From positions 6,309 through 70,308 of IMG/VR virus record IMGVR_UViG_3300008262_000149: a stretch of DNA of 64,000 nucleotides. One strand, given 5' to 3'. Positions within the stretch are counted from its first letter, which is position 1. The number at the start of each line of letters is the position of its first letter. The notes under the pieces are model-generated. The model ran no database searches. It was not told where the DNA came from and saw only the letters and a list, made by a program, of their open reading frames with translations. This document shows, piece by piece, positions 5,079-62,468 of the stretch. The position numbers were made by a program, and so were the translations under genes. This stretch comes from a virus.

Positions 5079-6904
5079 TGGCAGGATTATTAGACGCCGT
5101 ACAAGGTGCTCTTACAGGCGGATCTAAAGCAGTAACTGGCCTGGCGTCGGGTGTTTCTGCTATGCTCTCTTCAAAAGATAAGATAAGCCAAGAAAACTCG
5201 AATGTAATTTATGCTAGTTTCGGATTGGCCGGTACCGCCGCCAAACAGCGGGTTTCCGGGTCTGGAACACTACCAGCGGCTCAGGCTAAAAGCACGTACA
5301 AAGCAAAAACGAATGATACTGAAAAGCTTCTGACCGATGTTGTGAAGTATTTAGTATCAATCAACGGTACTCTAAAGAAGCAAATTGACTTTGACAGAAG
5401 AGTATATGAAGAAAATGCTCTTGCTGCCAGAGAAGCAAAAGTTGAACAAAACAGTACGTTCGAAGAACTTGGAAAGCGATACGGTGCAGCAAACGATAAC
5501 CAAAAACCCGGTGGCGGCATCGTAGCCGGTATTCTAAGTGCGCTTGGCAGTCTTGGAAAATTAGGACTAGATGCATTACTCAAGGGGTTGGTCACAGCCT
5601 TTGAAGCGTTTTCTTCAGCCTGGAAATGGCTACGAGGAATTTCTTTCTTAAAGAATATAAAGAGTTTATTAGGACTTGCACGAGCACTTCCGATCGGACC
5701 AATTGCCGCTGCGCTGGCCGCGGCTGGTGCTATTGTGTGGGGTGTTGACAAGTTCATGAAAAATACTGCGATGGAACCGTTGCAGGCAAGAAAAGAATTG
5801 GAACAGATGTATGGCATGAAACCGGTTCTTGATGAATCTGGCAGATGGACTACAGGCTATACTCTTCCCGATGGCAAAACATATAAACCAAACGCGCTTC
5901 CTTCAAAATACCAAGATATTTTAAATGCGTATGGTCCTGGCGATAAAAGAAACGCCGCTGCTGTTGAAGCAACAAAAAGAATACAAGCAGATCCTGGGGC
6001 CTATGAACCATCTAAGATGGCTGAAGAGTTAAAGGGAGGACAACAAGTTGCTGCACCTACTCCATCAGGAACTCAATCAGCCTCTACAGCTGGCCAGTCG
6101 CCATACGATGTCGTATTGGGTTATGGCAAATTTGGAAAACCAGAAGACTACTTCAATGGTAGAAAGCTATCACAACTTACTGTTGCCGAGGCATTATGGT
6201 TCGGAAGAAACGTTTTAATTCCTAATTCTGGAAGTATGAATTCTAGTGCCATGGGCGCTTATCAAATTGTGTCAAAAACACTACAAGGTCTGGTTGATCA
6301 AGGCGTAGTTAAATTAACTGATACTTTTAATGCGGCAACACAAGATAAAGCTGCTAAGGCGATTTATGATCAAGCCAATAAAGCAGGTACTCTAAATAAG
6401 CAATGGGCTTACTATATTCCGTCATATGGAGGTACAGGACAAAGATCCGATCCTCGTTCTTTTGAAGAAGCAAGAATGGATATCCTGAAAAAGGAAGGAA
6501 CTCTTAAAGGAACTAATAGTGTTCCAATGAGTCCAGCTGCTTCATCTGATAGTCCATTACAACAAGCTGCTGATACTGCTGCAGATGCTGCCGATAAAAT
6601 GTTAACAAGCGTCGCCGAGTTTATTGGAACTCTTGGCGGGAAAATCTTAGGCCCAGGGAAAGTAAGAAATCTTACTACAACCGGACCAGATTTTGCAAAA
6701 CTCATTTCTGAAGAGTCTAGTAAAATTCAAAATCAAATTGCGATGGGTGAGAAAAAGACTAACACCGCAGCTGCCAATATACCGCCGGCTGCTCGTGCTT
6801 TAAAGTCTATTTCTCCAAACGGATCTATTTCTGTTGTTGATCCAAACTATCCTGGTACTGGCGGGATTGAAAAATATCTCGGGCACTATAGACTGGCATC
6901 ATAA
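5078..6904 (+). CDS. tail tape-measure / baseplate hub-like protein
   Basis: 608 aa; Gly/Ala-rich with a hydrophobic AAALAAAGAIVWG segment; a central region has a weak lytic-transglycosylase-like SSAMGAYQIV motif; its C-terminal module is duplicated in 7671..8447. Confidence 0.4.
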   Translation: MAGLLDAVQGALTGGSKAVTGLASGVSAMLSSKDKISQENSNVIYASFGLAGTAAKQRVSGSGTLPAAQAKSTYKAKTNDTEKLLTDVVKYLVSINGTLKKQIDFDRRVYEENALAAREAKVEQNSTFEELGKRYGAANDNQKPGGGIVAGILSALGSLGKLGLDALLKGLVTAFEAFSSAWKWLRGISFLKNIKSLLGLARALPIGPIAAALAAAGAIVWGVDKFMKNTAMEPLQARKELEQMYGMKPVLDESGRWTTGYTLPDGKTYKPNALPSKYQDILNAYGPGDKRNAAAVEATKRIQADPGAYEPSKMAEELKGGQQVAAPTPSGTQSASTAGQSPYDVVLGYGKFGKPEDYFNGRKLSQLTVAEALWFGRNVLIPNSGSMNSSAMGAYQIVSKTLQGLVDQGVVKLTDTFNAATQDKAAKAIYDQANKAGTLNKQWAYYIPSYGGTGQRSDPRSFEEARMDILKKEGTLKGTNSVPMSPAASSDSPLQQAADTAADAADKMLTSVAEFIGTLGGKILGPGKVRNLTTTGPDFAKLISEESSKIQNQIAMGEKKTNTAAANIPPAARALKSISPNGSISVVDPNYPGTGGIEKYLGHYRLAS

Positions 6905-12104: not shown

Positions 12105-12452
12105 AAGAGTCAATGGAGGTGTCAACCTCCGTCGCGATATAATATTTATACCATTAAGTTGCCGGATTCTGTTTCGAGGCTCCGGCGGGCCCAATGCTAG
12201 CCTCAAGCGGCTAGAGCAAAGGCAACGTCATTATCGTTTGCGTTTACGTTTAGTGGCAACTTTGCCAAGCAATCAGTCTCGAACCGCCTTATTCTGCGTG
12301 CATCGATTCCCAGTAACACCCCCATCAACTACACTGCCCGTAACGTCCGCGGTCTATATCTTGTCAATTCAAGACCACAGTGTAGATGGTGGAGGTGGGG
12401 GGATTCGAACCCCCGTCTACTCCGCTTTTATTGTTGATTGTCAACAACTGAT
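12105..12452 (-). ncRNA. ssrA: circularly permuted (two-piece) tmRNA gene, ssrA
   Basis: Minus strand reads acceptor piece ...GGGGGTTCGAATCCCCC-CACCTCC-A-CCA (T-arm 12414-12398, 3' acceptor strand 12397-12391, discriminator A, encoded CCA 12389-12387). A 63-nt intervening hairpin follows. The coding piece starts GGGGGTG (12323-12317, G3:U70 pair) UUACUGGGAAUCGAUG, similar to the E. coli tmRNA 5' end. Tag frame GCA AAC GAT AAT GAC GTT GCC TTT GCT CTA GCC GCT TGA (12241-12203) encodes ANDNDVAFALAA, with the stop codon in the loop of helix CUAGCC-GCUUGA-GGCUAG. The 3' boundary is approximate. Confidence 0.7.
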
Positions 12453-12458
12453 AATCTA

Positions 12459-12487
12459 TATATACATCAATTTGTTTTTAATGTACA
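12459..12487 (-). promoter_or_regulatory. early promoter (TGTACA-N17-TATATA) upstream of the tmRNA precursor
   Basis: Member of the repeated AACTGTGTACA-N17-TAnnnT family; predicted start about 12450. Confidence 0.45.
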
Positions 12488-15750: not shown

Positions 15751-15780
15751 TCTTACATCTCCATCATAAGTTCATGAGCA

Positions 15781-16044
15781 TCATGCTCGGCAGCAGCATT
15801 GTAGTTGGTGCAGTCGCGGAAGATCACCGGTGATCTTCATCATCTCAAGCGCAGTTTCGGCGAGACGAACAATCGAATGCTTCGTCGGCGACTTTTCGTT
15901 GTAGTACTCGATGTAGATCCAGTCGATCAGGTCACCGGCGGCATTCCAGTCCTTCATGATCTTGACGACCTCACCGCGGATGGTACCAGCGGCCGATTCG
16001 TAGCGGACGCGATCGCCGATGAGGATGGTCTTAGGAGCAGTCAT
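15781..16044 (-). CDS. hypothetical protein
   Basis: Start MTAPKTILIGDRVRYE with AAGGA ribosome-binding site; early promoter upstream. Confidence 0.35.
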   Translation of the reverse strand: MTAPKTILIGDRVRYESAAGTIRGEVVKIMKDWNAAGDLIDWIYIEYYNEKSPTKHSIVRLAETALEMMKITGDLPRLHQLQCCCRA

Positions 16045-33128: not shown

Positions 33129-33322
33129 TAGATGTGCTCCAGTGCTTCTAGTTTATCCTTGTACTCGGCGATACGGCCGAGCTCGAGTTCAATTGCGCCC
33201 ATAAAGTCGGTATGTTCGTGAATAGCTATAGGGTTATTCATCATGACACGAATGTTCATTGCATGCATCTCAATACCAGCTTGTAACTTCTTGCGAAGGG
33301 CAATTTTAATATCATCTTTCAT
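33128..33322 (-). CDS. hypothetical protein
   Basis: 64 aa. Confidence 0.3.
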   Translation of the reverse strand: MKDDIKIALRKKLQAGIEMHAMNIRVMMNNPIAIHEHTDFMGAIELELGRIAEYKDKLEALEHI

Positions 33323-33466
33323 TATTTGAATCCTTATTACAAATTTCGTCGCTTACTGTTGTCTTAAATATATTCGGAATCAACCCGTGTATTAATAGTA
33401 TAACGCCCCATCTCCACGACCTAAAGAGATGTTGAAAGTAACCGATGTTGTTATCTTTCAGATGAG

Positions 33467-33613
33467 ACATTAACTGTTACTCATGTCTTCATATCGCCAA
33501 AGCATTTCTTGGATATATTCAATCTCTGCATCATAATTGTCATATGTCCAATCAGGCAGTTTCTCTTTTAACATCTCAAGAAACTTCATAGCATCTTCAT
33601 ATGTTGTGGTCAT
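33467..33613 (-). CDS. small hypothetical protein
   Basis: 48 aa; start overlaps the upstream stop (ATGA). Confidence 0.2.
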
Positions 33614-33747
33614 GAGCGCTTCTTTCTACTGGTGCGAGCCTTGGACAAAATACGAGCAAGACTCGCTTCTCGACGATCAAGTTCTTCCTGCTGACGATCA
33701 GCAAGAGCATTGCGTGCAGCAATCTCCATGTTCTCTGGCAAGCGCAT
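33610..33747 (-). CDS. small hypothetical protein
   Basis: 45 aa; AGGAG ribosome-binding site. Confidence 0.25.
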   Translation of the reverse strand: MRLPENMEIAARNALADRQQEELDRREASLARILSKARTSRKKRS

Positions 33748-33788
33748 CACTCTGCTCCTACGGTAGCTAGGGTCATTAGATTGTCCTT

Positions 33789-33884
33789 TCAGTCACGATC
33801 CAAGAGCCAGCGCTCAAGGTCGGCATCGTCGATGTCGTCGAGTTCATCCCGCGCGCGGTCTTCGAGCCAGTCGTCTTCATCCAT
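33789..33884 (-). CDS. small acidic peptide in GC-rich island
   Basis: 31 aa MDEDDWLEDRARDELDDIDDADLERWLLDRD; AAGGA ribosome-binding site. Confidence 0.25.
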   Translation of the reverse strand: MDEDDWLEDRARDELDDIDDADLERWLLDRD

Positions 33885-33959
33885 CACTCTGTCCTTTCTG
33901 CGCAAGGATCGCAGCCGCCGCAGCAGCGGCACCGCGCGCGGCGGATGATGTTAACCACA

Positions 33960-34268
33960 TCACTTCGCCTCCAGTGCTGCGAGGGCTTGAAGGCATTCGT
34001 TCGATAAGTTGTTTGCGGTTTCCCAATGTCGCGACGGTAACAGGCCCATCTCAACCACGTTCTCCCAGGCCTGCTGCGATCTACGCAAAGCCTCCTTCGC
34101 CGTCCTGATGCTTTCGACACTGGGCCGGGTGTTCCATACGGCGATTGCTTCGGCTTCGGTGTCCGCGCTTGGCCAAGAGCATTGGCTGCAAGATACCCGC
34201 CAGCCAGTAGGAACGCGGTGAGCAATTCCTCCCCCATTACAAAACGGACACGGCTTCAATTCAGTCAT
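33960..34268 (-). CDS. Lar-family restriction alleviation protein (zinc ribbon)
   Basis: MTELKPCPFCNGGG...VSCSQC matches the N-terminus of Lar_restr_allev proteins; local GC content is much higher than the surroundings. Confidence 0.55.
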   Translation of the reverse strand: MTELKPCPFCNGGGIAHRVPTGWRVSCSQCSWPSADTEAEAIAVWNTRPSVESIRTAKEALRRSQQAWENVVEMGLLPSRHWETANNLSNECLQALAALEAK

Positions 34269-34297
34269 GGCGCTTCAGTTTCCTTCATCATATATTC

Positions 34298-34326
34298 TTT
34301 ATATCAAAAAGAGGAAAAAATGTACA
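34298..34326 (-). promoter_or_regulatory. early promoter TGTACA-N17-TATAAA
   Basis: repeated promoter family; drives the Lar-like gene. Confidence 0.45.
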
Positions 34327-34330
34327 TACA

Positions 34331-34696
34331 TTAAACGAAATCCTCTAAAGTAGCAGAGGTCATGCCAATATGGTAAGGCTTCTTTCTACGAACCATGTTC
34401 TCGATCATATTACGTGTACCGCGAGACTCGCCGTCCCAAATAATAATAGCAGCGTCGGCATACTCTGCCATGGCCCGATTTCGCTGCGGACCGGCTGAGT
34501 TTCCGTGGCGCATCCAGTCGGCCGGCATTTCCTTAACAGGAACATCATTTGCCCGGGCCCACTGTTCACCAAGACGATCTACTCCGATTGCTGTACCACT
34601 TACAACCTCTGTGATATCGTAACCAGAGCTTTTAATAGTTCTTACAACGAGAGCGTAGTCGTCGATAGTACGTGAACCTGCAATGATAACCTTCAC
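34331..34696 (-). CDS. DUF2493 (YspA-type SLOG family) protein
   Basis: MKVIIAGSR...EVVSGTAIGVDRLGEQWARANDVPVKEMPADW...AGPQRNRAM matches the DUF2493 consensus. Confidence 0.55.
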   Translation of the reverse strand: MKVIIAGSRTIDDYALVVRTIKSSGYDITEVVSGTAIGVDRLGEQWARANDVPVKEMPADWMRHGNSAGPQRNRAMAEYADAAIIIWDGESRGTRNMIENMVRRKKPYHIGMTSATLEDFV

Positions 34697-34962: not shown

Positions 34963-35242
34963 ATCCGTTTCCTAAATAGTCAAACATTTTTGGATCATAA
35001 TACAGCTTTGCCGTGCCGCAGGATTCGATGTCATCGATATCGCGTGATGCCACTCTTACGTATTTCGAAAAGTAATCAATGCCACGAAGCTCGATAATAA
35101 GAGTCGTGGCAGCTGCCACCATGTTAGCGTTGTATACCACCCAGGTCACATCTTCTTCTGGCAGCCGCAAGATCGCATCAACGGTCTTTCCGCCATAATG
35201 CGAAATGTAGCTTTGCAGTTGGTCCTGTGTAAGTGCATTCAT
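34955..35242 (-). CDS. hypothetical protein
   Basis: 95 aa. Confidence 0.3.
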   Translation of the reverse strand: MNALTQDQLQSYISHYGGKTVDAILRLPEEDVTWVVYNANMVAAATTLIIELRGIDYFSKYVRVASRDIDDIESCGTAKLYYDPKMFDYLGNGYD

Positions 35243-36203
35243 CGATAATTTCCTTCACCTGTTCCTGTGTATATCCAGCAAGGACCATATCATTGATGTC
35301 CTTCTGTTCAATGGATGTTGGCCAGATACACACACGATATCCAGCATCAATAGCCTTTTCGATTCGTTTGACTATGTCTTTATTTCTGGGTTCGTTATCG
35401 TATACTACAATAAATCGCTCTTTTTGTACATCTAAAAATTGTAGTGGTGTGATAAGATCACCACCTGCCGATGCAATCCCATTTGGCAAAAAGAGTGAGT
35501 CAATCGGCCCTTCCACCACATATATATCATGGGACGGATCCATTGTATCGAGGCCAAAGATCTTCGGCTTCTCATCATCAAGAATGATAGTGATGTACCT
35601 GACCCCTGTTTTCTTGAACGAACGGCCTTGAAACCCAAAGAGCTTCTTGTTCTCATCAAGAAACGGAATGATCAACCGCGGTTCGTCATTCTTCAGAGAT
35701 TCCTCATCAAACTTATCAGGAAGCATGGTGTTCACCCACTCCTTAAAGTTTCTTACAAGAAATAGTTTGTGATGTGCCTCTGAAGGAATTAACCGGCGAG
35801 ATACGTATTGTTTGACTGGATGATCAGGTTTGAGTTGAGAGACCTTCTTCAAATCCTTCAGGCCGGTTGTCTTCACAAAGACCGGCGGCTTCATCTTCTC
35901 GACGAACTCTTGCGTCTCGTTCCTATGACCCTGCTCGAGCATCCGTTCCTTGAGATACTCAATATACAGAGTCGGGTCAAGAGTCTTAATGAACCATGGA
36001 AGACCCATTGATGCACTACAGTTATGACAAAAGAACTTTAACGCCCCTTTGCGCATATAGATATAACCACGAGTTTTACGAGGATCTTTTTGTGAGTCAC
36101 CACAAATTGGGCAACGGAACTTATAAGTGTTTGCGTTAACTCTTGCGAATCTCTCGAGTCTGGATGAAAGAAGATTAACGTATTTGTGTTCTAACCAAAG
36201 CAT
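35178..36203 (-). CDS. gp61: DNA primase gp61
   Basis: Zinc ribbon CPICGDSQKD...CHNC and TOPRIM YVVEGPIDSLFL. Confidence 0.85.
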   Translation of the reverse strand: MLWLEHKYVNLLSSRLERFARVNANTYKFRCPICGDSQKDPRKTRGYIYMRKGALKFFCHNCSASMGLPWFIKTLDPTLYIEYLKERMLEQGHRNETQEFVEKMKPPVFVKTTGLKDLKKVSQLKPDHPVKQYVSRRLIPSEAHHKLFLVRNFKEWVNTMLPDKFDEESLKNDEPRLIIPFLDENKKLFGFQGRSFKKTGVRYITIILDDEKPKIFGLDTMDPSHDIYVVEGPIDSLFLPNGIASAGGDLITPLQFLDVQKERFIVVYDNEPRNKDIVKRIEKAIDAGYRVCIWPTSIEQKDINDMVLAGYTQEQVKEIIDECTYTGPTAKLHFALWRKDR

Positions 36204-62420: not shown

Positions 62421-62468
62421 ATGTCCTCCTTGTATTCTCAGTATAGCACGTAATAATAATATTGTACA

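Follow-up and report, generated by a model that had tools for sequence, protein, structure and literature searches.

The 64,000-nucleotide stretch of DNA analysed here (the window) corresponds to positions 6,309 to 70,308 of the virus record IMGVR_UViG_3300008262_000149 in IMG/VR and is part of the genome of an uncultured T4-like phage. The phage encodes a gp61-type primase (35178-36203; on the minus strand, as are all genes discussed) that shares 45% identity with the primases of Methylophilales phage Melnitz and Synechococcus phage S-RIM8. The subject of this analysis is a GC-rich island (33751..34268) that lies in the junction between a gene of the SLOG family and the ThyX gene. It is very probably a captured patch of ~520 bp that originates from an unrelated phage of higher GC content (56-60%), more precisely from its region of early or accessory genes, and that consists of one intact gene, in which a Lar-type zinc ribbon is joined to a C-terminal module, plus ~210 bp of decaying donor genes. 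Horizontal acquisition is concluded because two sub-segments of the island are 92% identical at the nucleotide level to contigs of non-T4 phages with 56% and 60% GC, and because no Lar gene was found at this site in relatives of the phage.

GC content and extent of the island

The GC content is 43.5% in the window overall and 58.5% between 33780 and 34270, which bears out a first-pass annotation that had seen a GC-rich island at about these positions. Sliding windows of 300, 490 and 500 bp all have their maxima here (61%, 59.2% and 59.2%), and the peak is the only one in the 64 kb to exceed the mean plus three standard deviations (z ~3.7). On the upstream side of the island the increase is abrupt: the 62-bp gap in front of it (34330..34269) has a GC content of 30.6%, the Lar head 56.9%, the C-terminal module 57.0% and the debris of donor genes (33959..33751) 59.3%. 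In a crude set of open reading frames (ORFs) with 108 window genes (mean GC 43.3%, standard deviation 4.5), the ORF of the island ranks first. Composition and the nucleotide matches to GC-richer phage contigs delimit the island proper to 518 bp with 57.9% GC. The first-pass annotation had drawn its interval as 33789-34696; the island within this interval stands, but the SLOG gene that it also takes in has a GC content of 48.6% and lies outside the island.

A naive longest-ORF picker favours an ORF of 117 amino acids (aa) in an alternative frame (33884..34237), which overlaps the Lar ORF. It was rejected as a GC-driven artefact, since the Lar frame has family support. The search for RNA elements in the island, e.g. 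a RalA-like antitoxin, returned just a sub-threshold match to isrG.

The Lar gene and its C-terminal module

The intact ORF (33960..34268) begins MTELKPCPFCNGGG and encodes 102 aa, in which a Lar-type zinc ribbon is followed by a helical-hairpin module. The zinc-ribbon head (aa 2-48; 34125..34265) matches model positions 1-57/58 of the Pfam family Lar_restr_allev (PF14354) with 42.3 bits against a gathering threshold of 28.6 (E 8.7e-11). The Lar-type ORF that had been proposed at this position is thus real, with the match confined to these residues. The ORF also matches PHROG 599 (E 1.1e-8). Cys7, Cys10, Cys27 and Cys30 as well as the helix DTEAEAIAVWNTR align with members of the family, in which a four-cysteine zinc ribbon (CPFC ... 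CxxC) precedes a DTEAEAIxAWNTR helix. An AlphaFold2 (AF2) model with a predicted local distance difference test score (pLDDT) of 87.7 folds the head into a beta-hairpin and a helix (strands 15-19 and 22-26; helix 38-46, pLDDT ~88) and the module into a hairpin of two helices (51-73 and 79-101). Whereas typical Lar proteins are single-domain proteins of ~55-65 aa, the 102-aa protein thus carries a separate module (residues 57-102). It is encoded by the only Lar-domain ORF in the window, and no sequence relative of the whole protein was found in the PDB.

When 5.8 billion proteins were searched with the Lar ORF, relatives of two classes were obtained. Lar-type proteins match the first ~50 residues only. 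The second class (P0002-P0010), which starts MIEELRTLAEKATPGPW, matches the last ~50 residues only, with 58-87% identity. No Pfam family covers the module, no PDB entry is related to its profile, and for the proteins of the donor gene family (P0003-P0009) nothing in Pfam matched at E <= 1. Among 1.84 billion sequences searched exhaustively with HMMER, residues 51-102 matched 33 representatives (E <= 1e-3). In most cases the module forms the C-terminal end of a protein of ~60-330 aa whose N-terminal part is unrelated. Its consensus is EALRRSxEGWxNAVExGLLPxQHxxTAxxLxDEC, with W, N, E and A as invariant residues and G, P, H and L as nearly invariant ones. It recurs in small proteins of GC-rich phages, usually behind interchangeable heads.

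One close comparison is with the small modular early-region proteins of GC-rich phages that have MIEELRTLAEKATPGPW heads (P0002-P0009). They have the module in common with the Lar ORF (58-68% aa identity overall; 92% nucleotide identity over the module in the contig L009) and overlap the next gene by stop and start codon in the same way, whereas their head is of the ATPGPW type and the head here is a Lar zinc ribbon. A resemblance of these proteins to Ead/Ea22-like proteins was not confirmed, as they match neither Pfam Ead_Ea22 nor any other family. At least two of the proteins found with the module, P0026 and P0038, carry a Lar head above the Pfam threshold (51.5 and 36.9 bits) together with the same module. 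Since they combine the two parts independently, Lar-plus-module is a recurrent natural architecture, and judging from these sequences the fusion in the window is probably no accident of the capture.

Traces of the donor phage

The first of the two matching stretches (33958..34101) extends over the C-terminal module (aa 57-102) and its stop codon, and includes the ATG with which the next gene overlaps this stop (stop/start overlap GTGATG). Over these 144 nucleotides it is 91.7% identical to L009:8210-8353. L009 is a contig of a non-T4 phage with 56% GC and contains genes for a VapE-type primase, a PDDEXK nuclease, an Enc34-type ssDNA-binding protein, an SNF2 helicase and a Cro-like repressor. 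The JGI sample that it stems from (3300057159) is also the source of L004, a contig of the window phage. The second stretch (33900..33771) is 92.3% identical over 130 nucleotides to L091:899-1028, a contig with 60% GC. L009 and L091 are related to each other, with the flanking genes AAWLRRIGKPQLADAI and ARMALEAAAKVA...IVKGQ in common. Apart from these two stretches, no part of the window matches the donor-type contigs. The nearest Lar head (54% aa identity) is encoded on a contig with 59% GC that also carries an ERF recombinase gene. The first-pass annotation had suggested acquisition from a high-GC host or prophage; with the nucleotide matches the GC-richer source holds, but the evidence points to another phage and not to a host chromosome.

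Downstream of the Lar gene, the gene order of the donor is kept in collapsed form: the module gene is followed by gene A, a zinc-finger gene and a gene starting with MT. Gene A, which has 103 aa in L009 and 84 aa in L091, seems to be left as an ORF of 27 codons (MWLTSSAARGAAAAAAAILAQKGQSDG; 33877..33960). Between the start of this ORF and the upstream stop there is exactly the overlap seen in L009, the end of the ORF (..QKGQSDG) is similar to the ..IVKGQSDAE of L091, and a gap-tolerant alignment scores 66.2 compared to 48.2±4.7 for shuffles.

The next ORF (33789..33884) encodes 31 aa, 16 of which (52%) are D or E, with a net charge of −12. It is the 3' remnant of a donor gene of 72 aa, represented in full length by P0020, in which two CxxCxGxG zinc-finger motifs precede the acidic tail RKDRAMDEDDWLEERERDELDDIDDADLERWLLDRD. 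In L091 the matching stretch makes up the final 40% of this gene, and the match runs on through intergenic sequence into the ATGACC start of the following gene. Both CxxCxGxG motifs (DnaJ-type zinc finger) are missing in the window, where homology begins only at ..RKDRVMDEDDW; in P0020 itself they score 17 bits, below the Pfam cut-off of 32.7. In the 5.8 billion proteins, the 31-aa ORF has two related protein clusters only. Its start region is identical in 16 of 17 nucleotides to the donor gene's own. In L091 the 17-nucleotide translation-start sequence GAAAGGACAGAGCGATG is present twice, at 778-794, where the 72-aa gene starts, and at 901-917, inside the gene right before the acidic tail. Such a duplication is a likely substrate for a deletion that would have removed the zinc-finger half. 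The start of the donor's following gene is retained as a stub of nine codons (ATGACC...TGA; 33747..33776), and the intergenic sequence with ATGACC is common to L091:1011-1028 and L009:8639-8658.

A sister lineage without the debris

The contigs L001 and L002 encode a Lar protein that is 96% identical to that of the window, and lack the 213 bp that hold the debris, including the segment of the 31-aa ORF. In both, the stop codon of the Lar gene overlaps the start of a 46-aa gene (ATGA), so that the two are translationally coupled. In the window this gene is represented by a basic ORF of 46 aa right after the island (33610..33750; 51% GC), which has no homologues in Pfam or PHROGs. The retention of the intact ORF and the removal of the debris argue for selection on the Lar ORF and for a dispensable acidic mini-ORF, which is most likely a remnant. 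The annotation was therefore right in that a highly acidic 31-aa ORF exists, but wrong in counting it as an independent gene of the island, since it is a truncated remnant that has been deleted in one lineage. As to the mechanism of the 213-bp deletion, which we infer from the sequences, a simple repeat-mediated event was considered and rejected: GGAG..A(A/G)GTGATG is found at both ends, yet the L001 junction GGAGAAGGAATGATG exactly matches neither copy.

The identity between the window and L001 is ~62-86% from the primase through the SLOG gene (~70-86% in the SLOG gene) and 95-99% from 34307 downstream, over at least 4 kb. This jump in identity places a recombination breakpoint exactly at the junction of SLOG gene and promoter. 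From 34307 downward the gap in front of the Lar gene is 100% identical to L001. Within the near-identical block, identity dips to 91% in the module, where some L001 bases and some window bases match L009; gene conversion, if recurrent, or diversifying selection may be responsible for this dip. Eight synonymous and six non-synonymous codon differences separate the Lar ORFs of the window and L001, and all but one of them are in the module half.

The insertion site

The gene directly upstream (34331..34696) belongs to the YAcAr/DUF2493 SLOG family, as had been annotated (PF10686, 53.1 bits, threshold 28.2; PHROG 289, E 2e-28). A search with the SLOG protein gave 80 related viral loci, ~14 of which are syntenic (primase, small ORFs, SLOG, ThyX), and aa identity across relatives is 58-84%. 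Since the ~14 relatives share the gene at this position and no Lar gene was found within 4 kb of it in these T4-like genomes, the SLOG gene is part of the conserved backbone and lies outside the island. When all 80 loci were searched with a hidden Markov model of the Lar head, a Lar domain was detected within 4 kb of the SLOG gene in one of them, L060. This distantly related viral contig encodes, directly after a SLOG protein with 59% aa identity, a Lar-domain protein of 189 aa (PF14354, 42.9 bits), extended at its C-terminus by a long coiled part (L060:4001-4932). With one locus in 80, a conserved SLOG–Lar pairing was rejected, and with it the notion that the SLOG gene is a partner of the Lar gene; the adjacency of the two looks incidental.

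Four relatives (L015, L016, L022, L024) have SLOG and ThyX directly joined, with stop and start codon overlapping in TTTAATG. The junction is hypervariable: in relatives (L011-L025) it contains 0 to ~900 bp of unrelated small ORFs, and in the window 1.56 kb (34330-32768) with eight to nine small ORFs. TTTAATG is kept here, and the island forms the first 0.5 kb of the 1.56 kb before ThyX. The ancestral junction sequence is part of the AT-rich gap (34269..34330) that extends from the SLOG stop to the Lar start and is defined by its composition and by the junction of relatives. A further ORF of the variable region (33312-33470) encodes a 52-aa DUF6356 protein (29.9 bits, cut-off 24.4).

Hyperplastic regions of T4-like phages are known to contain ORFan cassettes that are shuffled as modules via promoter-plus-stem-loop (PeSL) elements (PMC2839356, PMC4122927). 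The island resembles these cassettes in being a small, presumably non-essential gene with a sigma-70-like early promoter (a candidate in this case), located between conserved core genes in a region whose content varies among relatives, and in having a sharp recombination breakpoint at the promoter. It differs from them by a cargo that is no database orphan and can be traced to another phage type with 92% nucleotide identity. No repeated PeSL motif was found in the window, and the only hairpin nearby is a stem of 6 bp inside the 3' end of the SLOG gene.

The concept of phage morons, extra genes with their own promoter between conserved genes, originates from temperate lambdoid phages. The island has in common with them a deviant GC content, a candidate promoter, a site between translationally coupled backbone genes and its absence from close relatives. 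In contrast, the recipient here is T4-like, and the insert came with decaying flanking donor genes.

The candidate promoter

A sigma-70-like promoter of the extended −10 type may be present at 34298..34326 (−35 TGTACA at 34326..34321, a spacer of 17 nucleotides, TG at 34306..34305 and −10 TATAAA at 34303..34298). It is located in the only AT-rich gap of the region, 30 nucleotides upstream of the Lar ATG. In L001 the −35 position has a perfect TTGACA, which results from an 8-bp difference at the SLOG stop (near L001:9940-9950). The promoter sequence is absent from relatives without the island. Our built-in promoter scan, which overall returned about as many sites as in shuffles, missed this one because it demands a T at position 6 of the −10 box.

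The site had been annotated as one of the phage's early promoters. As a plausible extended −10 site it stands, and we consider it a good candidate for an early promoter, but it does not belong to a repeated family: the 30-nucleotide sequence was not found elsewhere in the window at <=3 mismatches, and neither pattern searches nor a relaxed scan detected a recurrent early-promoter family there. The sole other intergenic site with the same unusual −35 box is TGTACA-N17-TATACT with TG (TG-n-TATACT) at 62468..62440 (minus strand).

Possible function and alternative explanations

If the candidate promoter is active, the Lar gene would be transcribed early, by the sigma-70 RNA polymerase of the host. 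Its product may be a dispensable accessory for host takeover or anti-defence, in which the zinc-ribbon head would act as the effector and the helical hairpin would serve for dimerisation or docking. The single most likely activity of such an early anti-defence accessory, to which we nevertheless give a probability well below even, would be a Lar-like interference with a type I restriction-modification enzyme of the host. The Lar protein of the Rac prophage alleviates EcoKI restriction by an unexplained mechanism (PMC3177214), and a Lar-like gene of phage Bas63 is conditionally essential in a host-dependent manner (PMC11482910). Like the Lar/RalR protein of the E. coli Rac prophage, the protein studied here has an N-terminal four-cysteine zinc ribbon of ~50 aa with a DTEAEA..WNTR helix, and both are encoded by small phage-borne accessory genes in an early region. 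Unlike it, the protein has 102 aa with an additional helical hairpin, scores below the NCBIfam cut-offs for Lar and RalR, and is encoded in a T4-like genome of the virulent type instead of a lambdoid prophage. The mechanism of the Rac protein is itself disputed between an enhancement of modification and a DNase activity.

A more far-reaching and rather speculative picture, to which we give a low probability, is that the helical hairpin is an as yet undescribed domain, the invariable tail of small phage proteins that form a modular family and exchange their heads (Lar zinc ribbon, ATPGPW-type and others). The tail would then be a docking or oligomerisation unit for anti-defence effectors, and the window would show such an effector after its move from a GC-rich phage to a co-occurring virulent T4-like phage, possibly in a shared alphaproteobacterial host.

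Several observations weigh against the capture as described or against the proposed function. No single donor contig with the whole arrangement was found, and the Lar head has no donor match at the nucleotide level. The direction of transfer is one that we infer from composition and phyletic pattern. The 27-codon ORF as a collapsed gene A is suggestive, with an alignment that is lenient towards gaps (z ~3.8), and the 31-aa ORF retains a full ribosome-binding site and ATG, so that it could still be translated. The candidate promoter is a match to the consensus. With regard to function, the ORF scores 25.1 bits with the NCBIfam model of the anti_R_Lar subfamily (TIGR03655, cut-off 39.6) and 16.6 bits with the RalR equivalog (NF007260, cut-off 113), i.e. 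below both cut-offs. Foldseek detected no structural neighbour in the PDB at E < 0.7; the best matches, partial and non-significant, were RNA-polymerase zinc ribbons (1.9 Å over 29 residues) and generic helical hairpins. RalR, which is the same protein as Rac Lar, reportedly acts as the toxin in a type I toxin-antitoxin system by cleaving DNA non-specifically (PMC4041452), which leaves the mechanism of the family unsettled. The anti-restriction function that the annotation had assigned was therefore not upheld as stated: what was found is membership in a Pfam family at the level of the domain, in a protein with low subfamily scores and an extra domain.

The annotation had in effect read the island as a two-gene anti-restriction cassette, in which the Lar protein and an acidic, possibly DNA-mimicking peptide work with the SLOG gene or are linked to it. 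The Lar domain match, the intact translation start of the acidic peptide with its 16 donor-like nucleotides, and L060, in which a Lar-domain gene also follows a SLOG gene directly, are in line with this. So is the charge of the peptide, with a composition like that of acidic anti-restriction proteins such as Ocr and ArdA. However, the peptide corresponds to the final 31 codons of the 72-aa donor gene and lacks the zinc-finger half, it has hardly any relatives (the two clusters mentioned above), and L001/L002 have kept the Lar gene without it. The SLOG gene is backbone in relatives with no Lar gene found nearby, and 79 of the 80 other SLOG loci have none within 4 kb. We thus regard this cassette as quite unlikely. 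We hold it to be similarly improbable that the ORF is RalR-like, in which case it would not modulate type I restriction-modification but would contribute to host takeover as a small DNase or toxin, or would belong to a toxin-antitoxin pair. The DNase activity published for RalR and the weak match of the ORF to the RalR equivalog model would fit, but that match is far below its cut-off, no antisense or small-RNA family was detected in the region, RalR lacks the C-terminal domain, and the gene is located in a phage of the virulent type behind a candidate early promoter, with no evident antitoxin.

Somewhat less improbable, although still unlikely in our view, is that the patch as a whole, with the Lar ORF, is passenger DNA without selective effect that is in the process of being deleted. 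Decay is evident in the neighbouring donor genes, the site is a hyperplastic junction with turnover of content, and the codon differences from L001 include almost as many non-synonymous as synonymous changes (six and eight), nearly all in the module half. Against this, the Lar ORF is intact with all four cysteines and the family motifs, it has a candidate promoter of its own, its architecture recurs in nature, and two lineages have kept it while the debris was cleanly removed from one, leaving an ATGA overlap with the next gene. The last alternative explains the GC peak by a chimeric assembly or by a native fluctuation in composition that is due to amino-acid content. The sequence is of metagenomic origin, and near and distant nucleotide searches as well as a protein search gave 0 matches of the island in 50,697 deposited phage genomes. 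An assembly artefact is excluded, however, because the identical Lar protein is found with the same junctions on at least 23 contigs from JGI, ENA and NCBI assemblies. In the Lar ORF, each of the three codon positions has an elevated GC content (54%, 55% and 61%), and GC-richer phages contain homologous DNA while relatives were found to have no Lar gene at the site, so that this explanation is effectively refuted. Capture from a GC-richer phage is thus the reading that we retain.

Regarded as such a capture, the island documents in good resolution the flow of genes between widely differing types of phage, with two segments traced at 92% nucleotide identity and one of them traced to the same metagenome sample. 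The neighbour genes of the donor are caught in successive stages of deletion, and the sister lineage represents the cleaned-up end state. The phenomenon as such, i.e. phage mosaicism and the acquisition of moron or ORFan cassettes in hyperplastic regions of T4-like phages, is already well known; the protein architecture is new. As a recurrent combination of Lar with a new module, it is a reasonable candidate for anti-defence screening. The analysis also corrects two tempting over-readings, namely the acidic mini-ORF as a gene and the SLOG and Lar genes as functional partners.

Host and other features of the phage

There are weak hints at an alphaproteobacterial host. The window contains a permuted (two-piece) transfer-messenger RNA of the alphaproteobacterial type at 12157-12485 (minus strand; RF04321 with 95.2 bits, cut-off 47; RF01849 with 60.2 bits, cut-off 50), which was not called by ARAGORN. 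A scan of bacterial genomes for the C-terminal module gave three loci only, two in a metagenome-assembled genome of the Hyphomicrobiales and one in Sphingomonas sp. Leaf10, and these are too few to name the host. An alphaproteobacterial host would fit a GC-richer co-infecting phage as the donor.

In the window, a gap of 241 bp at 15778-16018 has a GC content of 56% and contains no ORF of at least 40 aa, no transfer RNA and no Rfam match at the gathering threshold. Beyond the ThyX and ribonucleotide reductase genes of the same phage, genes of the homing-endonuclease type (NUMOD3; SegE GIY-YIG) are located among the ribonucleotide reductase genes (L003:16581-17126, L004:10775-11194). Farther along there are AdoMet decarboxylase-like, WYL_2 and glutaredoxin genes.

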